Below, one piece after another: positions 46,856 to 64,000 of a stretch of 64,000 nucleotides of DNA. The DNA is from Flavobacteriales bacterium. Lineage in GTDB: Bacteria; Bacteroidota; Bacteroidia; Flavobacteriales; TMED113. The stretch spans positions 46,195-110,194 of the forward strand of contig NZUK01000002.1 in the NCBI GenBank assembly GCA_002701365.1. The letters run 5' to 3'. The notes beneath the pieces are model-generated. The model had not been told where the DNA came from. It saw only the letters and a program-made list of their open reading frames with translations, and ran no database searches. Position 1 is the first letter of the stretch, and every line of letters begins with the position of its first letter. Position numbers and translations under genes: made by a program.

Positions 46856-49330
46856 TTAATTATATATTAGAACTTTCTTAACAACACTTTTTTCAAAATC
46901 GGAAGAGGTGCATAAAAACAAATACACTCCAGTACTAACCTTAGCGCCATCAAATCGTTTTCCGTCCCACGTAGCTGTCCCTCCATTTGAGATGGTTTCG
47001 TAAACTAAATTTCCAGAAACATCCGTTATCTTAACCACGGTGTTATATTCTAATCCAGAAATAGCGATGAGCCCCTCATAGTCTCTTTTTACTGGATTAG
47101 GAAAAACAATTACATCATTAAAATTACTGAAAGATGTTGTTGCGTCTGATCGGAATGAGCATAGGCCTTTGTTGGTTGCAAAAAACACTTCCCCAGAAGA
47201 TTCAACAATATTTATGTCATAGACCATGTTATCTAAAAGAAAACTGTTTTCTTTTGTGAAGTGATGGATTTGCTCACTACCATCCTCAGACACTAAAAAA
47301 ACACCACTTGATTTTGTTGCCACCCACTTTCTATTAGCATCATCTGTTTCAATGTCTAGAATTTCAGTATTCTCAAATAAGCGCTCTACATATCCATCAT
47401 CTGTTTCAATTAATATATATTCTACTTCAATAGACTGTGAATTAAAAAGAGTATTTGGAAAAAAAACAACGGATAGTCCTTGTGATGTGCCAATCCAGAC
47501 TGCGCCATCTTTGTCTTCAGAAAAACAATTCACCGTATTACTGGCCAGGCCATTGGATTCGTTAATTTTTTTAGCTTGTCCCCCCTCCTCCTCAACAACA
47601 ATAACCCCATTTTTTCGTAATTGAATCCATTTTTGGCCATTGCTGGCACAAAGAATTTTCCCTGACATGTCATTTTCTGATGAAATTCCAGCGACTGGAT
47701 AATTACTCCACGAATTATTTTCTGGAGAGTATTTTACTAGCGGCTTGTCGGACTGAGAATTAGTTATCCATAAATTATTATTTGAATCAGTATCAATCCC
47801 TCCTATCCTAATATAATTGCTTGTACCGAAAGCAGGCATTAATGCCTCGGTATTTTGCTCGTTATATAATTGCGTTAAAGTTGTGCCCTGAAACTCCAGT
47901 AAACCCTTGTTCCAGCTTCCTAAAAAAAACTTATTCCCACTAGAACACCCGGAAACAATGTCATAAACTCCTAGTTCTAAAATAGTATCGGAGGCGCTCC
48001 AGTAATTGTTGGAATAAACAGAAAACTCTTGATAATTATACGCATTGTTCCAATCGCTTGTCCTTCCTCCATGCGTAAATACCACGCTATTGTTATGATT
48101 AAAAACGACCCCCGTATTTATGTCTGCGGGGCCGTTTGGAGCAATATATTCGCTGAAAAAAAGCTCTTTGTTTTTGTTGACTAAAACTAACCCGCCGTAC
48201 TTTTCGTCTCCTAAAAACAATCTTCCAGAATTATTATAATCATCCAGAACTATTCCACAACTTGGAGATAAATTAAAATCAACACTACTAAGATTTTCTA
48301 TTGTGAGATAGCTAGATGTTTTTAAAAAAGGGTCTAGTATAATTAAATTATTGTTGTCCTCAAAAATGGTGATAACAACTGTTTTTTGAGCATGAGCGTT
48401 ATATTGAGCCCTAATAACTTTTCCAGGGACAGTTTCCTTATAATTAAAAATTAATAGACTAGATGATGTATTATTATTATCGTTAGAAATAGTATTAAGT
48501 TCAAAAAAGTTGTATTCATTATTTAGCCCCATAGGATAACCCATCTCAGCAAAATTTAAATTTGTTACTATTGCAAGCTTTTTCCCCCCATTTTCCTTTA
48601 GATCAAATCCTAAAACCTGCTTAACTTCTTGTTCTTCTAAAGAAAAATTAAACGAGCCAGTTATTTTTTCAAAAGAAATTGTAGAATTTTTCTCCCACGA
48701 ACTAAAGTCTAGTAAATTGTCAGATTTATTAGCAAAAAATAGCCCTGAATTTGTTGCAACAAATATTTTATTGGCTAAAAACGAATCACTTACACTATTG
48801 ATTTCATCATCAAATACATATACTTGATACACTTCAGCGTTAACTCCCTCATTTTCAAAATAACAGGTCTCTTTTATTTCTCTTTTTTCAAGGTTGACAA
48901 TTACTAACCCAAATGAGCAAGAGAGATATGCGAATTTTCCATCAATAAATATGGAATTAATAGACTTGTCTCCAATAATATTTGATAAATAAATATCGGG
49001 CAAGTTGGTGATTAAGCCATCTTTCAAAATATCGATATTTCCATCTTTATATCCAATTAAAATTGTTTCACGAATAGGATCATGAGCTAATGACTGAACA
49101 TTGTGTCCATTAAGTCCATCTAGTTTAGAAAATGTTGTTAAGCTATTTTCGTTGCTATCATACAAAAACAAGCCCGACTGAGTTCCAATATAAACTAGAC
49201 CATTTATACTGGTAGCAGTATTAATATTGGTATAGTTTAGGTGAATGCTCCAGTCACCAATTTTTAAGCTTTGTCCGATTCCAGTCAAAGCCAGCCCATA
49301 GATAAATACAAAAACAAGAATTCTATACAT
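46856..49330 (-). CDS. Two-propeller (Reg_prop-type) secreted protein with T9SS C-terminal sorting domain, PorZ-like
   Basis: Repeated propeller blades (NNLWITNS, GAVWIGTSQGLSVV, RKWVATKSSGVFLV, GEVFFATNKGLCSF). The C-terminal CTD runs VFPNPVKRD...TGVYLFLC...KKVLIYN. I start it at ATG 49330 (MYRILVF signal) because the listed TTG 49348 lies inside a promoter box. Confidence 0.6.
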   Translation of the reverse strand: MYRILVFVFIYGLALTGIGQSLKIGDWSIHLNYTNINTATSINGLVYIGTQSGLFLYDSNENSLTTFSKLDGLNGHNVQSLAHDPIRETILIGYKDGNIDILKDGLITNLPDIYLSNIIGDKSINSIFIDGKFAYLSCSFGLVIVNLEKREIKETCYFENEGVNAEVYQVYVFDDEINSVSDSFLANKIFVATNSGLFFANKSDNLLDFSSWEKNSTISFEKITGSFNFSLEEQEVKQVLGFDLKENGGKKLAIVTNLNFAEMGYPMGLNNEYNFFELNTISNDNNNTSSSLLIFNYKETVPGKVIRAQYNAHAQKTVVITIFEDNNNLIILDPFLKTSSYLTIENLSSVDFNLSPSCGIVLDDYNNSGRLFLGDEKYGGLVLVNKNKELFFSEYIAPNGPADINTGVVFNHNNSVVFTHGGRTSDWNNAYNYQEFSVYSNNYWSASDTILELGVYDIVSGCSSGNKFFLGSWNKGLLEFQGTTLTQLYNEQNTEALMPAFGTSNYIRIGGIDTDSNNNLWITNSQSDKPLVKYSPENNSWSNYPVAGISSENDMSGKILCASNGQKWIQLRKNGVIVVEEEGGQAKKINESNGLASNTVNCFSEDKDGAVWIGTSQGLSVVFFPNTLFNSQSIEVEYILIETDDGYVERLFENTEILDIETDDANRKWVATKSSGVFLVSEDGSEQIHHFTKENSFLLDNMVYDINIVESSGEVFFATNKGLCSFRSDATTSFSNFNDVIVFPNPVKRDYEGLIAISGLEYNTVVKITDVSGNLVYETISNGGTATWDGKRFDGAKVSTGVYLFLCTSSDFEKSVVKKVLIYN

Positions 49331-49345
49331 ATGTAAACAGTTAGA

Positions 49346-49353
49346 CAAATATA
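49346..49353 (-). promoter_or_regulatory. Candidate -7 box (TAnnTTTG) for the PorZ-like/recO/TonB-receptor string
   Basis: The minus strand reads TATATTTG, ending 15 nt upstream of the ATG at 49330. Confidence 0.45.
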
Positions 49354-49394: not shown

Positions 49395-49468
49395 GGCCCT
49401 GTAGTTCAACTGGATAGAATGGCAGATTTCGGCTCTGCTGGTTGCAGGTTCGAATCCTGCCAGGGTCA
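49395..49468 (+). tRNA. tRNA-Arg (anticodon TCG)
   Basis: Folded by hand. Acceptor GGCCCTG/CAGGGTC (one G-U), D arm GTTC/GAAT, anticodon arm GCAGA-TTTCGGC-TCTGC, variable loop TGGTT, T arm GCAGG-TTCGAAT-CCTGC and discriminator A. 74 nt, with no encoded CCA. Confidence 0.9.
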
Positions 49469-49515
49469 CATAGTTTTAATAAAATATAATTTATGAGAAA
49501 AAAATTATTTGTAAA

Positions 49516-50841
49516 TTGACAAAAGTATACTTTATAGATTTGAGACTATTTATTCCCATATTATTTTTACCTCTAATAATTTTTGGTCAGTGTGTTACTG
49601 GCGATTGTATTTCCGGGACGGGTGAATACAAACTAAAGAATGCTGTGTATTCTGGTGAATTTATAGATTCAGAAATTAATGGTGATGGAGTGTTTTCAAC
49701 AAAAAGAGGATATACTTATAATGGCAGTTGGCGAAATGGGTTGAAAGATGGATATGGCAGCGAAAGTTTCAAAAAATCATATTCATATACTGGCAGTTTT
49801 TCAAAAAACCGACGACATGGTCATGGAACCGCATCTATGGAGTCGACTAAGTACATGCAAAATATAAATTATTCTGGGAACTGGTTTTATGGAACAATGT
49901 GTGGTAAAGGAGAACTTACATATGTCAGGCAGGTAAAATATGGTCGCGATAAAATTGAAGAAAAAAACACGCTTCAAGGAGAGTTTTTTAATGGTATTTT
50001 TCAAGGAAGACAAACTAGCCCATATTCGGATGAGTTAAAGTGGAAAGCATTTGATTTAAAAACGAATAATTTTCAGAAGTATTATAATCCAAGTGAGAAG
50101 GAACGCAAAAAACTTAAAAATCCCGCTACATTGGAGGGCGATATCATGGTGGATTGCCAATGCATGGACAATACAATAGTTTTTAATGCTACCGCCCTAT
50201 TTAGACAAGACCTTTCATGGTGGTCTACCAAGGATATACCAACAAAAACAAAAACAATTGTTTTAAACAGTAGGCAGCGGGAGTTTGATATTATTGAGTG
50301 GCATGCTCGAGCACTACAGGCACACTTGAATAAGAAAAAATTAATTTGTAGCAGTGAGTCACTTGAGGTTTTTTGGCAAGAGCTTCAATCATTTAAAAGA
50401 GAGTCGGATCAAATTAGGAAACAGTATAATGTGGAGACGGCCTGGAACCCCAAGAAGGGAATTCCAAAAAACACAAGTGTTCAAGAGAGGTGGAATAATA
50501 AAATTTCAAAAAAGCTGAAAAAATATGAAAAAATAAATGAAAAATTTAGCAACAAAAAAACCAAAAAATCTAAGTCAAAAGATGATAAAAAGGCTGTTTG
50601 TCAGGAAATGAATATAGATTTAAGTATTTGCCCCGTTATCCCAAAAACAGAAGTCATAAAGATAGAAGAGCCAAAAAAAATCAAGAAAACTAGAAAAAAT
50701 CATGTAGGCCAGATGTTGGCTGCGTGGAATGAGGGCTGGCAAGCTCAAGCCCAAAGAAGAGAAAACAAAAAAGAAGAAAACAAACTAAAAGCTCCTAGGT
50801 CATTCCAGCCACAATTCCCAAGATCTCAGCAATTAGAATAG
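49516..50841 (+). CDS. Secreted MORN-repeat protein with Lys-rich C-terminal region of unknown function
   Basis: Hydrophobic N-terminus. About 5 MORN units (YSGEFIDSEINGDG, YNGSWRNGLKDGYG, YTGSFSKNRRHGHG, YSGNWFYGTMCGKG). The C-terminal half has no motif I recognise. The start is an uncertain TTG (see finding). Confidence 0.6.
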   Translation: MTKVYFIDLRLFIPILFLPLIIFGQCVTGDCISGTGEYKLKNAVYSGEFIDSEINGDGVFSTKRGYTYNGSWRNGLKDGYGSESFKKSYSYTGSFSKNRRHGHGTASMESTKYMQNINYSGNWFYGTMCGKGELTYVRQVKYGRDKIEEKNTLQGEFFNGIFQGRQTSPYSDELKWKAFDLKTNNFQKYYNPSEKERKKLKNPATLEGDIMVDCQCMDNTIVFNATALFRQDLSWWSTKDIPTKTKTIVLNSRQREFDIIEWHARALQAHLNKKKLICSSESLEVFWQELQSFKRESDQIRKQYNVETAWNPKKGIPKNTSVQERWNNKISKKLKKYEKINEKFSNKKTKKSKSKDDKKAVCQEMNIDLSICPVIPKTEVIKIEEPKKIKKTRKNHVGQMLAAWNEGWQAQAQRRENKKEENKLKAPRSFQPQFPRSQQLE

Positions 50842-50915
50842 TCTAAAGTGTTGTCAGCAATATTTAATAGCTAAATAATAGTATTTTTTTTTATCTTTAG
50901 TGAAATTCTATACTT

Positions 50916-53900
50916 ATGAAAAACCTTATATTCTATATTTTTTTTATTGGATTTTTTTTGTGCGCACCAGCACAAATCCAAGTAAATGAATTTTTTGCTG
51001 ACAACGGAGATTGTTGTTTGGATGATTTTAATGAAACAGAAGATTTTTTAGAGCTAATAAATCTTGGGCCTTCTCCAATTGACCTAGCAGGCTATTTTTT
51101 TGGAGATCAAGATGGAGGAACAACGATACAGAGTGGATATCCTGAGATTACCACCATCAGTAGCGGAGGAGTTTTGGTTTTATGGTATGATAATGATCCA
51201 GATCAAGGCCCACTTCACATAGAGGCCAAGTTAAATAATGATGGCGAAAACATTATTGGAATAGACCCCGAAGGGAATGCTATTATTGACATTGTGTATG
51301 GGGCTCAATCTGAAGATGTTTCTTTTATCGCCCTCCCAGATGGCGCCACGTATGATGAGGGGTGGAGCTTTAGCATGTGCCCTACCCCAGGAGAATTTAA
51401 CCAGGACTGCCCATTATTAGAGGGCTGCACAAGTCCAAATGCGACTAATTATAATGCTAATGCTACAATCGAAGATGCGTCCTGTTTGTTTGGAGTCTTT
51501 AATGGAATCATGATTAATGAGTATTCGGCGTCAAACTGTGATAATGATGGAGGCGATTGTGGAGATTATGAAGACTGGGTTGAATTGTTTAATAACTCTC
51601 AAGAGCCAGTTGATTTACAAGGTTATTTTTTAAGTGATAAAATAGACAATTTACTTAAATGGCAGTTTCCAAATTCTTTGATTTTACAGCCTCAAGAGCA
51701 TGTTGTAATATATGCTTCGGGGCTAAATCCAGATTTAGAAATTTCTACAAATGAAACAAGCTTTAAGCTTTCTCAGACAAAGAACAATGAATATATAATA
51801 TTAGTTTCTCCAGATTTAACAACTATTGATTATGTTCAATTATCGAGACATAAACTTAATCACTCTATAGGGCGAACTGCAGATGGAGCCTCCGACTGGT
51901 CGATTTTTACTAACTCAAGCCCAGGGGGGGCAAATACAGATTCATATATTAATTATAAAGCAACACCATACTTTAATTATAATGCAGGATTTTATGAAAA
52001 TTCGATAGAATTAATTATTAACTGTGATGATGTCAATGTTGATATATATTATACCCTAGATGGCTCGATTCCGAACACCGGTTCAGCCCTTTATGGATCT
52101 ATCGATCAAAGCGGTAATATTCAATTATCGGAGCCCGGTCTTATTGTAGACAACACTGTGGTTGTTCGCGCAATCGCTATAAGTCAAGATAATCAATATC
52201 TAAATAGCTTTGTTGAAACAAACACATATTTTCTGAATCAAGAACACACTATGCATGTTATTTCTATCGCAGGATCACAGGTAGATAATTTGCTGTATGG
52301 TAATCAAATACGACCGATTGGATCTTTTGAAATCTTCAATAGTGACGGAGCGTTAATTGATGAGGCCGTTGGGGAGTTTAACAAGCATGGCAACGATTCG
52401 TGGGCTTATGATCAGCGTGGTTTAGATTTTATTATTCGTGATCAGTATGGCTATAATCACGCAATTAATGATAAGCTTTTTACAACCAAAGATCGCGATT
52501 CTTTTCAAAGATTAATTTTAAAGTGTGCAGCTAATGATAATTATCCTGCTACTTTTGGCTCTCCAGCTCACATTAGAGATTCTTATTGTCACTCCTTGTC
52601 ACAGATTGGCGATTTGAGAATGGATGAGCGCTCACATGAGTCGTGCATTTTATATGTAAACGGAGAATATTGGGGCGTTTATGATTATAGGGAGAAGGTT
52701 GATGACTTAGATTTTTTAGAGTACTATTATGATCAGGGAGAAGGTTATGTTGATTTTTTAAAGACATGGGGAGGCACCTGGGTGGAATTTGGAGATAACA
52801 CTACTGAAAATGAATGGGACGATTTAGTTGACTTTATCACAGGTAATGACATGTCAGATATAGATAACTATACATATGTAAAAAGCGTTTATAACACGGG
52901 AAGTCTAATTGATTACTTTATTTTAAATTCTTATGTTGTTGCCATGGATTGGTTAAATTGGAATACCGGCTGGTGGAGAGGAAAAAATCCAAATGGAGAT
53001 AAAAGAAAATGGAGGTATATTTTGTGGGACATGGATGCTACTTTTGGTCACTATGTAAATTATACAGGGATACCAGACACTGGTGCTGGTGCAGATCCTT
53101 GTGATCCAGAAACACTGGGGGATCCAGGAGGCCAGGGCCATGTGCCAATTCTTAATGCCCTATTTGACAACGACGAGTTTAGTGCAGATTATATTAATCG
53201 TTATGCCGACCTCTCTAACACAATTTTTAGTTGTGATTTTATGATTGGACACTTAGATAGTTTGATAAATATTATTGAGCCAGAAATGCCGGCCCAAATA
53301 GAAAGATGGGGAGGAAGTTTTTCTCAATGGGAAGATAATGTTCAAGAGTTGCGAGATTTTATTTTAGAAAGATGCTCAGATGAGTTTGTTGAAGGTATGG
53401 AAGATTGCTATGATGTAGAGGCTATGAATGTTACCGTTATTATAGAGGGAGATGGTGAAGTGGAGCTGAACTCTATAGAGCTAGACACTGAAAACAGTCC
53501 CTGGACAGGAGTGTACTATTCTGGACTTCCAATCAGTATGTCGGCTAATGCGAGCAGTAATGCTTTTAATTTTTATTGGGAGGTGATTGAGGGAGATCTG
53601 GTTTTAGAGGACCCCACAAATCCAGATATTATTTTTGACCTAAGCTCAACAATAGTTATAGTGGCTCATTTTGAGGAATGTCTATCTGTAGCTACTGAGG
53701 AAATTGTTGGGCCGACGGTAGTTCAGGAGGGGTCAATTTGGCAATATACTTTTCCTTCTGAATTTACTAATACATCTGAGTGGTCTGTTAGTGGTGGAGA
53801 AATTTTATTTACATCATCATCGGAAAACACGATAGCTATTCAGTGGAATTATGGAACTGGGCAGGGTCAGATAGTTTTGAGCCAATACAATATAGGTGGT

Positions 53901-54320
53901 GATCTAGAGTGTCTTTTTACTGCAATTGAGATTACGGAGGCTCCAATTAAATACGAGTGTCTTGGTGACGGTATTTGCGAACAGTCTCTTACTGGTCAGT
54001 TTTTGTCCTATGAGGACTGTGTTGAATCGTGTGAACAGGCAACATCAGTCTTTGAAGATCTCTCAACCGCCACTGCCCAGGTTATTGTGTTTCCAAATCC
54101 GTCTGAGCAGGTGTTTAATGTAGTTGCGTATAATACAAACGCAACAGAAATGACAATGTACGACCTTAGTGGCAAGCTGGTTTATCATTGCTCGGGCTGT
54201 TTTGGAGAAAACGGTGAAGAGCCACACGCAATTAGTCTTCAGTCGATCTCTTCAGGCATCTATGTTTTAAAGGTTCAATCACCATTAGGCAGCATTATTA
54301 AAAAGGTCGCGGTAAAATAG
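50916..54320 (+). CDS. Secreted LTD-LTD-CotH (atypical kinase-like) multidomain protein with T9SS C-terminal sorting domain
   Basis: Signal peptide. Two lamin-tail-like domains (VNEFFADN..DFLELINLG..IDLAGYFFGD and INEYSASN..DWVELFNNS..VDLQGYFLSD). A CotH-like core (CILYVNGEYWGVYDYREKVD, RYILWDMDATFGH). The CTD runs VFPNPSEQVFNV...SGIYVLKV..KKVAVK. Confidence 0.7.
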   Translation: MKNLIFYIFFIGFFLCAPAQIQVNEFFADNGDCCLDDFNETEDFLELINLGPSPIDLAGYFFGDQDGGTTIQSGYPEITTISSGGVLVLWYDNDPDQGPLHIEAKLNNDGENIIGIDPEGNAIIDIVYGAQSEDVSFIALPDGATYDEGWSFSMCPTPGEFNQDCPLLEGCTSPNATNYNANATIEDASCLFGVFNGIMINEYSASNCDNDGGDCGDYEDWVELFNNSQEPVDLQGYFLSDKIDNLLKWQFPNSLILQPQEHVVIYASGLNPDLEISTNETSFKLSQTKNNEYIILVSPDLTTIDYVQLSRHKLNHSIGRTADGASDWSIFTNSSPGGANTDSYINYKATPYFNYNAGFYENSIELIINCDDVNVDIYYTLDGSIPNTGSALYGSIDQSGNIQLSEPGLIVDNTVVVRAIAISQDNQYLNSFVETNTYFLNQEHTMHVISIAGSQVDNLLYGNQIRPIGSFEIFNSDGALIDEAVGEFNKHGNDSWAYDQRGLDFIIRDQYGYNHAINDKLFTTKDRDSFQRLILKCAANDNYPATFGSPAHIRDSYCHSLSQIGDLRMDERSHESCILYVNGEYWGVYDYREKVDDLDFLEYYYDQGEGYVDFLKTWGGTWVEFGDNTTENEWDDLVDFITGNDMSDIDNYTYVKSVYNTGSLIDYFILNSYVVAMDWLNWNTGWWRGKNPNGDKRKWRYILWDMDATFGHYVNYTGIPDTGAGADPCDPETLGDPGGQGHVPILNALFDNDEFSADYINRYADLSNTIFSCDFMIGHLDSLINIIEPEMPAQIERWGGSFSQWEDNVQELRDFILERCSDEFVEGMEDCYDVEAMNVTVIIEGDGEVELNSIELDTENSPWTGVYYSGLPISMSANASSNAFNFYWEVIEGDLVLEDPTNPDIIFDLSSTIVIVAHFEECLSVATEEIVGPTVVQEGSIWQYTFPSEFTNTSEWSVSGGEILFTSSSENTIAIQWNYGTGQGQIVLSQYNIGGDLECLFTAIEITEAPIKYECLGDGICEQSLTGQFLSYEDCVESCEQATSVFEDLSTATAQVIVFPNPSEQVFNVVAYNTNATEMTMYDLSGKLVYHCSGCFGENGEEPHAISLQSISSGIYVLKVQSPLGSIIKKVAVK

Positions 54321-54377: not shown

Positions 54378-56246
54378 TTATCGTCCCATGTGAACAAGCA
54401 GAACGCTTATGTCTGACGGTGAAACCCCCGAGATTCGTGAAGCCTGGCCTATCGTATTGGGTTGAATTCGTTTTAGTTTCTCTCGCCCTTCACTTGAGAT
54501 AGATTTAATCTTTGTATAATTAAAGTTTTTTGGAAGGGTGATATTCTCTAGCCTATTAAACTTTTCAACATTTTCTCTTTCTTTCTCTATGTATCCCGAG
54601 TATTTCAAAGATATCTCTACTTGGTCAATAGACTCTCTGTCTAATTTATTTACTTTAAAAAACTCTGATACTGAGCTGCAATTCATAACATGTTCAAAAG
54701 AAATGTTAGGTCTTGAAAGAATTTTTGAGATCCTGGTTTTGTTTTTAATTGTGCTTTCACCAAGATTAATTAATGTTGGGTTGATTTCTTCGGGGGATAT
54801 ATTTTTGGACTGAATAAGGTGTGATAATTTTTTAATATAATCTAATTTATAATTAAGACGTTCAACTCTTTCGCTAGAAGCTAGTCCGATGCTGGCTCCA
54901 ATTTGCGTTAGTCGGAGGTCTGCGTTATCTTGTCGCAGCAGTATTCTATATTCAGCTCTAGACGTGAACATTCTATATGGTTCGTCAGTTCCCTTTGTGA
55001 CCAGGTCATCAATAAGTACCCCAATGTACCCTTCATTTCTTTTAATAATAAAGGGAGGAAGTTTTTCTATTTTGTGCGAAGCATTTATTCCAGCAATTAA
55101 TCCCTGGCAGGCAGCTTCTTCGTACCCAGTCGTTCCGTTGATTTGCCCTGCAAAAAACAAGTTTTCAACAACTTTAGTTTCAAGACTATGATTTAGCTGG
55201 GTTGGTGGAAAGTAGTCATATTCTATTGCATAGCCAGGTCTAAAAAGTTTTACTTTCTCAAACCCAGGTATTTCTCTTAGGGCATCGTGTTGAATTTTTT
55301 CGGGGAGAGATGTTGAAAATCCATTTACATATATCTCGCATGTTTTTCTTCCTTCGGGCTCTATGAAAATTTGATGTCGTTCTTTGTCTTCAAAACGAGT
55401 TATTTTATCTTCTATTGACGGACAGTATCTTGGACCAGCGCCCTTAATGCTGCCATCAAATAGAGGTGAATTTTTAAAACCTGCCTTAAGTATTTCGTGA
55501 ACTTTTTTATTTGTGTAACACATGTGGCAAGAGACTTGGTTTTTTAAAATCGACCTGTTCAAAAAACTAAACGTTTGCGGTGTTTCGTCGCCAGAATCTT
55601 TTTCTAGAAGATCATAATTTAGTGTTCTTCCGTCAATTCTTGGGGGAGTCCCTGTTTTCATTCTTCCAGTTATAAAGCCAGCTTTTTTAAGGGATTCTGA
55701 AATTCCTTTAGAAGATTTTTCTCCTGATCTTCCTCCTTGAAAATTTTTTTTACCAACGTGAATAAGTCCGTTAAGAAAAGTCCCGTTTGTAAGTATAACG
55801 CATTTACTTTTAATAGACCTGCCTAAGGCAGTTACAACACCATGAATTTTATTATTTTCGATAATTAAATCTATAACCATATCTTGCCAGAAGTCAATGT
55901 TTGGGATGTTCTCTAGTTGAAATCGCCATTCTGCTGCAAATTCCATTCTGTCACTTTGAGCTCTTGGGCTCCACATTGCAGGCCCCTTAGATTTGTTAAG
56001 CATTTTGTACTGAATCATGGTATTGTCAGTAATAATACCTGAGTACCCTCCTAGTGCATCAATCTCTCTAATTATTTGCCCTTTTGCAATACCTCCCATG
56101 GCAGGGTTACAAGACATTTGCCCAATGGTTTGCATGTTCATTGTAATTAGGAGTACCTTTTTTCCAAGATTGGCTGCGGCTGCGGCCGCCTCACATCCTG
56201 CGTGCCCGCCACCAACAACGATAACATCATGATGATTGTTAAACAT
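54378..56246 (-). CDS. mnmG: tRNA uridine 5-carboxymethylaminomethyl modification enzyme MnmG (GidA)
   Basis: FAD motif [14 protein letters not shown] and highly conserved MnmG blocks ([39 protein letters not shown]). Confidence 0.95.
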
Positions 56247-62080: not shown

Positions 62081-62339
62081 CAATTTTGGCATTTAAAGGG
62101 CCCTAAACCAGAACAATCGTTCCAGAAAAGTTATTAACAAAAAATTAACAATTTACATTGTTTTTTAATTAAAAATTCCTAAATTGAAGGCGTAGGATTA
62201 CCCCCATTTGTGTTCGTTCTCCTGCCATTTTGTTAATTAATTAGTTGGTTTTCAGACAATTGTCTTTATTGACCAGGTTTTATTTTTTAAAAAAAATATG
62301 AGAAATAATATACCCCAAAATATTAAAAATTTAGTAGCT

Positions 62340-64000
62340 ATGAAAAAAAATTTACTTTTCAAGAGAAGATTTTTCTCTCTTTTGCTGAGTCTATGCTTTT
62401 CCTTTGGATTTGCTCAGGACTTTGATTATACGATTACTGACGCTAACATGACAGTTCAGGTTGGTGCGGACGTGTGTGGTTTAGTTATGGAAACAGGAGA
62501 TCTTCTTGGAGCCTTTTATATTAATAGTGATGGTGATCTTGCCAACGCTGGTTATCTTCCATTTGAAGGAGATCAACTTGCAATTGCAGTATGGGCATCA
62601 GAATCAGGTCTTGGCAATGGTTTTGCTGCAGGTGATGATATTCAGTGGGCGATGTATGATCAGTCTTCAGGAGAAACAATACTTTTAGATTCCGAGATGA
62701 ATTCGGATCCTCCATTTTCAGCAACGTTTGTTGGCAATGGTTTTGGGCAGGTTCTGTCTCTTTCGGTTTCTACTGGAGATGATTGTGCTGATGACGATGC
62801 GGCTGTTTCTGCCTTTGGTGGTTGTGCAGGCGCTGTTGCAGCTCTTGGTTGTGATTTTGTTTTTGGAGGTGTGCCAATTGGAGAGTCTTGTCCAGTATCT
62901 TGTGATAGCTGTCCTTCTGACTGTGCCGATGATGATGCGGCTGTTTCTGCCTTTGGTGGTTGTGCAGGCGCTGTTGTAGCTCTTGGTTGTGACTTTGTTT
63001 TTGGAGGCGTGCCAATCGGAGATTCTTGTCCAGTAACTTGCGACAGTTGTGGTGGCGATTCAGAGCCTATTCTTGGCTGTACAAATGAGGATGCTGCTAA
63101 CTACGACGCTTCTGCTACAGACGATGACGGTTCTTGTATAGTGTTAGGCTGTACAGATAACTCGGCAGTCAATTACAATGCTGATGCAACAATTGATGAT
63201 GGCTCATGTGTAGTATTCGGATGTGCAGATTCTGCTGCAACTAATTATAATTCTGCTGCAACAATTGATGATGGTTCTTGTGAATATGCGCCAGCGGAAC
63301 CAGGACCTATGGATTACACAATCACTGACGCTAATATGACAGTTCAAGTTAGTGCTAATGTTGTATTTATGAACGGAGACACTCCAGCACCAATGGGGTC
63401 GTTGTTAGGAGCATATTATACAAATGATTCAGGCGAACTTGTTAATGCTGGCTATGAAGTTTTAGATGGTGATGATCAATATGCAATTGCAGTATGGGCG
63501 TCAGAATCAGGACTTGATAATGGTTTTGCCGCTGGCGAAGAAATTACTTGGGTGCTTCAAATAGGAAATGATTTATTTGTTGCTGATGCAGTAACAATGA
63601 ATTCTAGTCCCCCGTTTTCAGCAACATTCGTTGCAAATGGATTTGGGCAAATTCTTGATGCACAGTTTTCAGGAGAATTTACTGCAGACACACCAGGTTG
63701 TACAGATGACACAGCATGTAACTACGACGCTTCAGCTACTAGCGACGACGGTTCTTGTACTTATGCTTTATCTGGTTTAGATTGTAACGGAGACTGTTTA
63801 ACAGATGCCGATGGGGATGGCATTTGCGATGACGATGAAATTTTAGGCTGTACAGATGATACAGCATGTAACTATGATTCTTCAGCTACTGATGATGATG
63901 GTTCTTGTGAGGGTGCAACAACTGGCTATGACTGTAACAATAACTGTTTAACAGATACTGATGGAGATGGTATTTGTGATGAATTTGAAACAGCGGGTTG
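62340..64000 (+). CDS. Large modular secreted protein, N-terminal part (continues past the window; not in the ORF track)
   Basis: I translated the frame codon by codon from ATG 62340 (MKKNLLFKRRFFSLLLSLCFSFGFAQD signal) to nt 64000 and found no stop. An in-frame ATG at 62298 is an alternative start. Cys/Asp/Gly-rich repeat architecture. Confidence 0.85.
   Translation, partial: MKKNLLFKRRFFSLLLSLCFSFGFAQDFDYTITDANMTVQVGADVCGLVMETGDLLGAFYINSDGDLANAGYLPFEGDQLAIAVWASESGLGNGFAAGDDIQWAMYDQSSGETILLDSEMNSDPPFSATFVGNGFGQVLSLSVSTGDDCADDDAAVSAFGGCAGAVAALGCDFVFGGVPIGESCPVSCDSCPSDCADDDAAVSAFGGCAGAVVALGCDFVFGGVPIGDSCPVTCDSCGGDSEPILGCTNEDAANYDASATDDDGSCIVLGCTDNSAVNYNADATIDDGSCVVFGCADSAATNYNSAATIDDGSCEYAPAEPGPMDYTITDANMTVQVSANVVFMNGDTPAPMGSLLGAYYTNDSGELVNAGYEVLDGDDQYAIAVWASESGLDNGFAAGEEITWVLQIGNDLFVADAVTMNSSPPFSATFVANGFGQILDAQFSGEFTADTPGCTDDTACNYDASATSDDGSCTYALSGLDCNGDCLTDADGDGICDDDEILGCTDDTACNYDSSATDDDGSCEGATTGYDCNNNCLTDTDGDGICDEFETAG
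62781..63056 (+). repeat. Tandem duplication of a 138-nt (46-aa) six-cysteine module
   Basis: Copies lie at 62781..62918 and 62919..63056. By hand alignment there are 12 differences in the first 132 nt (9 synonymous) and 5 in the last 6 nt. Confidence 0.9.
63696..63995 (+). repeat. Tandem 150-nt (50-aa) higher-order repeat (Cys cassette + TSP3-like Asp-rich loop)
   Basis: Unit 63696..63845 (GCTDDTACNYDASATSDDGSC..DCNGDCLTDADGDGICDDDE) and unit 63846..63995 (GCTDDTACNYDSSATDDDGSC..DCNNNCLTDTDGDGICDEFE). The array probably continues beyond the window. Confidence 0.85.

Follow-up and report, generated by a model that had tools for sequence, protein, structure and literature searches.

Does an exported protein built around a kinase fold have a dedicated partner encoded beside it? 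The question is raised by two genes, here called A and B, in a 64,000-nucleotide stretch of DNA from a Flavobacteriales bacterium (C7:46195–110194 of a 1.55-Mb genome, G000, that is 86.6% complete; we refer to this whole stretch as the window, and coordinates without a contig name are positions within it). Gene A (49516–50841, + strand), recognized as an open reading frame (ORF) with a Pfam MORN match, opens with a TTG codon and encodes a basic, putatively exported protein of 441 amino acids in which MORN repeats precede an orphan domain. Gene B (50916–54320, + strand), delineated from its ORF, Pfam and NCBIfam matches, and an AlphaFold model, encodes a predicted cargo of the type IX secretion system (T9SS), 1134 amino acids long, with a CotH kinase-fold core. 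The two genes are co-directional, separated by a 74-bp gap, and follow a tRNA-Arg gene (anticodon TCG; 49395–49469, + strand; called by ARAGORN) that served as a syntenic landmark, an arrangement that agrees with a preliminary description of this DNA. With moderate confidence, we favor an explanation in which the pair is fixed chromosomal content, B would be an exported CotH-fold enzyme, and A would be its dedicated partner.

The answer bears on a wider problem. Among the T9SS cargoes of Bacteroidota that still lack an explanation, exported proteins with a CotH kinase fold rank with the most common, and the conserved, clade-specific A offers a concrete candidate partner or substrate for B. In addition, an invariant Arg beside the intact catalytic Asp of B poses the question of whether this protein is a kinase, another transferase, or a pseudoenzyme.

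A CotH kinase-fold core in a predicted T9SS cargo

In all the features compared other than an N-lobe Lys, B qualifies as a CotH-family protein and as a type A cargo of the T9SS. Its predicted domains run from two lamin-tail domains (LTDs) through a CHB_HEX_C domain, the CotH core, and a pair of beta domains to a terminal T9SS sorting domain of type A, and between them Pfam, NCBIfam, and the structural model recovered each of the modules that had been read from the letters alone (two lamin-tail domains, a chitobiase-C-like module, CotH, additional beta domains, and the sorting domain). The CotH protein-kinase-like core, delimited by Pfam, a profile search, and the model, spans residues ~447–832 (52254–53411, + strand). 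Within it, PF08757 matched residues 525–819 with 127.3 bits (cut-off 23.8; E 1e-36), covering profile positions 34–318 of 322. A profile of the domain matched the B. cereus CotH structure 5JD9 (E 6e-23), which was reached by profile only, the single B sequence having matched nothing in the PDB except a C-terminal sorting domain (CTD). The AlphaFold2 model of B (pLDDT, the per-residue confidence score, 79.7) likewise matched the CotH structures 5JDA (E 2.9e-12) and 5JD9 (E 1.1e-11) in the PDB, with target TM-scores of 0.71–0.72.

The residues expected of an active site are retained in the C lobe. Profile and MAFFT alignments placed the motif D678-W-L-N-W-N683 (52947–52964, + strand) opposite the catalytic-loop D-x4-N of Bacillus CotH, and D705 (53028–53030, + strand), which lies in W-D-M-D, opposite the first, metal-binding Asp of W-D-Y-D in the B. 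cereus protein. D678, N683, and D705 were each invariant in 45 of 45 B orthologues. In B. subtilis CotH, D228 is the catalytic Asp, and mutation of either D228 or D251 inactivates the kinase (PMC7821199); the 23-residue spacing in the B. cereus protein identifies D678 and D705 as the equivalents of these two residues. Both parts of the earlier proposal, that a CotH domain would be detectable with a hidden Markov model and that its catalytic residues would be present, were thus borne out, and the intact metal-binding and catalytic C lobe suggests that the core of B is most likely a phosphoryl-transfer or related transfer enzyme.

The termini of B carry the features of T9SS cargo, as had been proposed. 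By inspection, the N terminus reads as a signal peptide, MKNLIFYIFFIGFFLCAPAQ/IQVNE, with a helix at residues 2–15 in the model. The C terminus is a type A sorting domain (residues 1055–1134; 54078–54317, + strand; PF18962, E 1e-11; TIGR04183, E 6e-11), of which residues 1058–1134 scored 42–45 bits against cut-offs of 23 and 27 and matched the CTD chain 8GLK_D. T9SS genes in the genome include a PorZ-like gene beside the locus and SprA (a 2431-amino-acid frame, 559 bits), so the secretion system is available to B. The protein is strongly acidic (pI 4.05, net charge −138).

These features suggest a path and a working arrangement. B would cross the inner membrane by Sec and fold in the periplasm, and its type A sorting domain would then route it through the T9SS, with the cell surface as the probable endpoint. 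There, its Ig-like, LTD, and CHB modules would hold a target on which the kinase-fold core would act. Of these putative binding modules, the first LTD (residues ~21–153; 50976–51374, + strand) and the second (residues 197–331; 51504–51908, + strand; best LTD stretch 197–308, with many invariant columns) were recovered as two Pfam LTD stretches (E 4e-27); the first is absent from the orthologues of other families, those of f2, f3, and f9 aligning from residue ~194 only. The CHB_HEX_C_1/Fn3_assoc beta domain (residues 356–428; 51981–52199, + strand) matched Pfam with E values of 1.2e-10 and 1.3e-8 and was modeled with a pLDDT above 90. Two all-beta, Ig-like domains follow the CotH core (residues 836–1030; 53421–54005, + strand) according to the secondary structure of the AlphaFold model; this region had no Pfam match below E 0.1, and its residues 919–1010 matched other secreted proteins. 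Residues ~1011–1050 form a genus-specific Cys-rich insert, through which the g1 orthologues align, the alignments of other genera ending at residue ~1010.

Between the two LTDs lies a Cys-bracketed linker cassette of 21 amino acids, C171...C190 (CTSPNATNYNANATIEDASC; 51426–51485, + strand), evident from the sequence. Its pattern, C-T-x-x-x-A-x-N-Y-x-x-x-A-x-x-[ED]-[DG]-x-C, matched no Pfam family. Similar Cys cassettes recur many times in further secreted proteins, both of this genome and of its relatives, for example at L006:2745–3941 and at 62298–64000 of the window, and short matches to residues ~160–195 of B were found in many other secreted proteins of relatives.

A MORN protein from an orphan family

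The upstream gene encodes a protein of a very different kind. PF02493 matched A with 43.1 bits (cut-off 22.5), no other Pfam family being detected, and an alignment of 25 homologues, from which all conservation figures for A are drawn, delimited a MORN beta-hairpin array of about five YxGx[FW] repeats at residues 26–160 (49591–49995, + strand), opened by the pair C26/C31. The invariant residues of the array are Y45, G47, and F49; Y68, G70, and W72; Y91, G93, and F95; Y119, G121, and W123; and G155 and F157. The AlphaFold2 model of A (pLDDT 82; predicted TM-score 0.70) folds residues 25–158 into an eleven-stranded MORN sheet, and a Foldseek search with it returned MORN matches only, among them MORN1, radial-spoke MORN proteins, and junctophilin (E 1e-9 to 1e-6). 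Together with a putative signal peptide (residues 1–25; 49516–49590, + strand; a hydrophobic helix at residues 9–22 in the model), the array agrees with the preliminary description of A as an exported protein with about five MORN repeats. All 25 homologues have Q25 and C26, and a Gln at position −1 in every one of them favors cleavage by signal peptidase I over a lipobox, so cleavage after ..FGQ is likely and would leave an N-terminal Cys. The mature protein would be strongly basic (pI 9.6, net charge +27).

It is uncertain whether A starts at TTG 49516 or at the in-frame TTG 49540, and the predicted signal peptide is intact with both. The closest homologue (88% identity) begins at about the position of the former, and several orthologues start at the point of the latter. 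An 8-codon ATG mini-ORF (MRKKLFVN*) containing an A7 run lies just upstream and out of frame (49494–49519). We had considered a frameshifted ATG start for A by way of this A7 tract (49498–49504) and rejected it as unneeded, the 88%-identical homologue and TTG 49540 being sufficient.

The C-terminal half of A had been described as a Lys-rich region without a recognizable motif, and the searches upheld that view: its 277 amino acids had no Pfam match, even at E ≤ 1. In the AlphaFold2 model and the alignment, the Lys-rich orphan domain occupies residues 171–355 (50026–50580, + strand) and consists, as modeled, of a small beta unit containing C214 and C216 followed by three long helices (243–274, 280–307, and 320–353). 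It is well conserved within the family: C214, C216, W235-W236, E256-F-D-I, W262, N272, and C278 are invariant, as are, further on, Y304, T308, W310, N311, P312, G315, K318, N319, Q323, and W326. A phmmer search of 1.84 billion representative sequences returned only members or fragments of the same family and four marginal matches (E 2e-5 to 5e-4). Remote relatives of the domain were sought without success, Pfam having given none and Foldseek MORN proteins only.

Beyond the orphan domain, a K/E-rich tail (residues 356–427; 50581–50796, + strand) is partly helical and modeled with low confidence (pLDDT 42–84). Its length varies from 0 to ~100 amino acids among homologues, and its DNA contains no true tandem repeats, only A-rich low-complexity sequence. 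The protein ends in a peptide aligned across homologues, ..RSFxPQFPRSxQLE-COOH (50797–50838, + strand), in which F434, R436, and L440 are invariant, P432, P435, and Q439 are present in at least 90% of homologues, and the Ser residues vary (Ser makes up 6% of A). We rejected the idea that this peptide is a general sorting tag, the motif ending no other ORF of at least 80 amino acids in the genome. The whole A family comprises 48 clusters, all from marine metagenomes or from metagenome-assembled genomes labeled 'Flavobacteriales bacterium', and is an orphan family restricted to one clade.

A MORN-only paralogue of the N-terminal half of A lies elsewhere in the genome (G000:C14:41250–41609, a frame of ~160 amino acids), and several relatives have such paralogues as well. 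A may have originated by fusion of a small MORN-only gene to the orphan C-terminal domain.

The locus is fixed in the family

Full-length orthologues of B were found in 13 of the 15 family genomes searched, at 57–77% identity, and orthologues of its core (residues ~194–930) at ~50% identity in three other families. More broadly, ~2,000 Bacteroidota protein clusters match B; in the best 120 of these, the LTD-CHB-CotH core is 45–56% identical, and many have a type B sorting domain. Annotations among the matching clusters include 'CotH kinase family protein' and 'T9SS type B sorting domain-containing protein'.

The position of B is as stable as its sequence. On one side it abuts mnmG (54378–56246, − strand), which is convergent with it and is followed by ybeY and a DUF4175 gene and then, on the + strand, by gltX and folB; B lay against this mnmG-ybeY-DUF4175-gltX block in 12 of the 12 family loci examined. 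On the other side, wherever family contigs extend, are the tRNA-Arg gene, the PorZ-like T9SS gene (46856–49348, − strand; PF21544, E 1e-36), which is divergent from the tRNA gene and A/B and syntenic in relatives, and beyond it, also on the opposite strand, recO and a gene for a TonB-dependent receptor. The family-wide syntenic string reads PorZ, tRNA-Arg, [A], B, MnmG, YbeY, DUF4175, GltX, FolB, tRNA-Cys. A/B is thus fixed chromosomal content of a streamlined (~1.5 Mb) marine Flavobacteriales clade and not an island. The preliminary description had framed the pair as accessory and tRNA-flanked, a framing that the synteny of B and its orthologues in other families contradict. It had also proposed that identical locus content in all relatives would mark the locus as core; that is largely what we found for B, and A is present in one clade only.

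The only variable part of the locus is a short slot between the tRNA-Arg gene and A/B. In other genera it holds genes for an esterase, a NADase_transloc/HINT protein, YbjQ, or a 152-amino-acid CTD-like protein, and in some A-bearing contigs there are extra genes between PorZ or the tRNA gene and A.

Gene A stays next to gene B

Full-length homologues of A were found in 7 of the 15 family genomes, in four genera. In six of these genomes (G001, G002, G005, G006, G008, and G012), A directly precedes B on the same strand, at a distance of ~10–120 bp; in the seventh, the two genes fall at the ends of different contigs. Two further metagenome contexts also have A directly upstream of B, and in the context L052 the most divergent A homologue (41% identity) is directly followed by a B-type gene, even though a DEAD helicase and an Endonuclease_1 gene take the place of PorZ and tRNA-Arg in its upstream flank. 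In all nine contexts in which the contig reaches far enough, the next gene past A is B, so the two genes do co-occur and remain adjacent in other genomes, as had been anticipated. No A homologue was found away from B in the contexts recovered, and many B orthologues occur without A. A orthologues are 46–54% identical, as compared with 43–50% for RecO and PorZ, a similarity that indicates ordinary purifying selection on A.

This pattern supports a clade-specific accessory partner of B over chance adjacency. The opposite charges of the two proteins (+27 and −138), together with the design of A, in which a scaffold, a spacer, and a terminal peptide follow one another, fit a protein–protein contact, and A is probably a dedicated partner of the very acidic B. 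We envision that A, exported by Sec, would present its MORN scaffold, three-helix orphan domain, K/E-rich spacer, and conserved C-terminal peptide to B, acting as a binding scaffold, as a periplasmic holder or regulator/inhibitor, or as a substrate. As the preliminary description had stated, the pairing appears to be undescribed: our literature search found no paper describing a MORN–CotH pairing or the function of an exported Bacteroidota CotH protein.

Alternative explanations

Several observations weigh against our explanation, some of them against a link between A and B and others against catalysis by B. Genera g2 and g6, as well as other families, have B but no A, which implies that A is dispensable for the basic role of the B family, and in those other families B has no conserved partner, its neighbors being housekeeping genes that differ between families. 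Within one clade, adjacency could be no more than inherited gene order, with only the rearranged context L052 speaking otherwise. B could also have its own promoter, given a −7-like box (TATCTTTA) within the 74-bp gap; the sole exact TAnnTTTG box falls inside the start region of A, and a scan for sigma-70 promoters and terminators is uninformative for Bacteroidota. Finally, A lacks a T9SS sorting domain, so its inferred default location is the periplasm, and it may never meet mature B outside that compartment. Such points could be accommodated if the adjacency had no functional meaning and A worked on its own in the periplasm or envelope, say as a basic MORN scaffold binding anionic envelope polymers, having been inserted once into the tRNA-Arg slot in one ancestor and inherited with the locus; the unrelated small secreted-protein genes that occupy the slot in other genera and the small MORN-only paralogue elsewhere in the genome are in keeping with this scenario, under which the locus would be ordinary core content. 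However, A is immediately upstream of B in every recovered context, in at least four genera and including L052 with its wholly different upstream flank, other slot genes come and go around the A–B pair, and the A–B gaps are short. We therefore regard an adjacency without meaning as rather unlikely, though as the most serious challenge to the A–B link. Much the same locus could in principle represent a tRNA-Arg-flanked accessory two-gene cassette, possibly acquired horizontally, as the location of A/B directly 3′ of a tRNA gene and the confinement of A itself to one clade might suggest. Against this stand the family-wide synteny and identities of A and B that track those of housekeeping neighbors. 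There is no integrase or recombinase among the genes neighboring A/B, and the 3′ 23-mer of the tRNA-Arg gene has one copy within the window at up to three mismatches and hence no direct repeat, two absences already reported in the preliminary description. Nor is there a GC anomaly, the A/B region (0.34–0.41) being similar to its flanks in a genome of ~0.35. A mobile cassette is accordingly highly improbable.

The case against catalysis begins with the N lobe. In the MAFFT alignment of five paralogues and B. cereus CotH, R501 (52416–52418, + strand) stands where the CotH 'KKS' motif has its second Lys: where the family has RG..S...KKS, B reads HGNDS...Q500-R501-G502, with HGNDS retained, and Q500-R501-G502 is invariant in 45 of 45 orthologues. 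Four or five of the five paralogues, like the B. cereus protein, keep the KKS Lys, which is presumed to bind ATP in Bacillus CotH. In classical kinases, replacement of the N-lobe Lys with Arg usually abolishes phosphotransfer, and neither the periplasm nor seawater offers much ATP. Of the earlier label 'kinase-like enzyme', the fold and the C-lobe residues therefore stand, whereas 'kinase' is insecure for the whole orthologue group. B might instead be non-enzymatic, with a CotH pseudokinase scaffold serving adhesion or ligand binding at the surface, much as fungal CotH proteins serve as host-cell ligands; its many Ig-like, LTD, and CHB binding modules, its predicted surface location without an obvious ATP supply, and a Pfam CotH match that misses the first 33 profile positions would all be in keeping with such a role. 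Nevertheless, the D-x4-N loop, the metal-binding Asp, and dozens of nearby residues are invariant across families at ~45–50% overall identity, which is the pattern of a working active site, and the invariance of HGNDS...QRG indicates an N lobe that is constrained rather than decayed. For these reasons we judge a purely binding role for B unlikely and prefer to view B as a probable enzyme of the CotH fold.

Variable genes near the locus

The gene immediately upstream of B in genera g2 and g6 is ybjQ, and the g2 loci add genes for the esterase and the NADase_transloc/HINT protein. The ybjQ gene, which encodes a 104-amino-acid YbjQ_1 protein (PF01906), is divergent from and just upstream of the B orthologue in every A-less genus case (L040:7112–7426, L041:6714–7028, L042:7872–8186, L038:1836–2195, L039:3035–3349, and L043:10965–11279). 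At L042:6646–7710, in the slot after tRNA-Arg, is a gene for a secreted protein that combines a NADase_transloc F5/8-type-C domain with a pretoxin-HINT/intein-like module. At L043:11326–15757 (G009, genus g2), two more CotH-like genes lie beyond ybjQ near the B orthologue, forming a local CotH cluster.

Comparison with known systems

Bacillus CotH (5JD9/5JDA; D228 and D251 in B. subtilis), a Ser/Thr kinase of the spore coat whose substrates CotG and CotB are encoded nearby, shares with B its Pfam family, fold, catalytic Asp and Asn, and metal-binding Asp. The two differ in setting and design: Bacillus CotH is a single-domain, cytoplasmic (mother-cell) enzyme that uses ATP, whereas B is a multi-domain protein of 1134 amino acids with predicted T9SS export and an N-lobe Arg. 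The gene arrangement also recalls CotG/CotB-CotH, in which the kinase gene lies beside a gene for a basic protein; here, the gene for basic A is 74 bp upstream of B, and the adjacency is conserved. In Bacillus, the basic, Lys-rich protein encoded next to CotH is both substrate and cofactor of the kinase (PMC7821199). In contrast to CotG-type proteins, A has little Ser and no tandem SKR repeats, it is largely folded, with Lys-rich parts that are mostly helical, and it has no conserved Ser in its tail. The low Ser content, folded helices, and absence of repeats weaken the reading of A as a CotG-like substrate.

Related CotH genes within the same genome offer a second comparison. The 1.55-Mb genome contains six CotH genes, five with LTDs; the five other than B are at C36:13583–14485, C36:16801–17745 (tandem with the former), C4:23498–24409, C13:9106–10116, and C2:44666–45604. 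Paralogue architectures include CotH followed by a right-handed beta-helix and a C-terminal transmembrane segment, LTD-CHB-CotH-CTD, and CotH-...-LTD with a short 'DGSVEKKYIVE'-type C terminus; in the alignment, the catalytic Asp is replaced by Ser in the C36a copy. On contig C13 (6585–11064; L048, L005), one co-directional string encodes VTC, a DUF4956 membrane protein, a DUF2490 barrel-like protein, and CotH+LTD, and a Streptococcus preprint links this polyphosphate-polymerase-like VTC-DUF4956-DUF2490 module to CotH. B differs from these clusters in having no VTC neighbor. Among control genomes, those of B. subtilis, B. thetaiotaomicron, C. glutamicum, and M. acetivorans gave a CotH signal, and the last three also gave a VTC signal.

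By analogy, one could imagine A/B as a Gram-negative counterpart of Bacillus CotG/CotB-CotH, in which B would dock the C-terminal peptide of A as a substrate or pseudosubstrate and modify A, or a surface polymer bound to A, to build or pattern a surface layer, using a donor other than ATP such as polyphosphate from the VTC module. Such a donor would account for the nucleotide pocket of B having, without exception, Arg in place of Lys. We consider this scenario a long shot, and the VTC-DUF4956-DUF2490 module as a source of polyphosphate for B is speculative.

Fam20 kinases act in a Golgi lumen supplied with ATP, a setting unlike that of B. As is predicted for B, Fam20C and the other secretory-pathway kinases have an atypical kinase fold and operate outside the cytosol, and their resemblance to B is at the level of this idea only, no sequence-level match having been sought or obtained. 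CotH has been described as distantly related to Fam20C and the secretory-pathway kinases (PMC7821199, PMC9758233).

For A, the closest parallels are eukaryotic MORN scaffolds (MORN1 6T4R/6T69, radial-spoke and central-pair proteins, and junctophilin 7RXE), which share its repeat and its beta-hairpin sheet; junctophilin also has long helices after the MORN sheet, as does A. Unlike these proteins, A is bacterial, predicted to be exported by Sec, capable of forming disulfides, and strongly basic, and for its C-terminal half relatives were found only within the A family. The preliminary description had drawn on lipid binding as a property of MORN repeats, a contested generalization that we do not carry over to A, whose Foldseek matches are protein-scaffold arrays and for which the analysis gave no sign of lipid binding; those who solved the MORN1 structures (6T4R and related entries) reportedly questioned MORN lipid binding themselves.

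By sequence, B belongs directly to the exported Bacteroidota LTD-CotH proteins, a group that takes in those encoded in VTC-DUF4956-DUF2490-CotH clusters. It is distinguished by an extra N-terminal LTD, a type A instead of a type B CTD, and the preceding gene A, which is lacking in other members. Judged by its domains, B is an ordinary member of a common, annotated Bacteroidota LTD-CHB-CotH family, and the pairing with a MORN protein is the new element.

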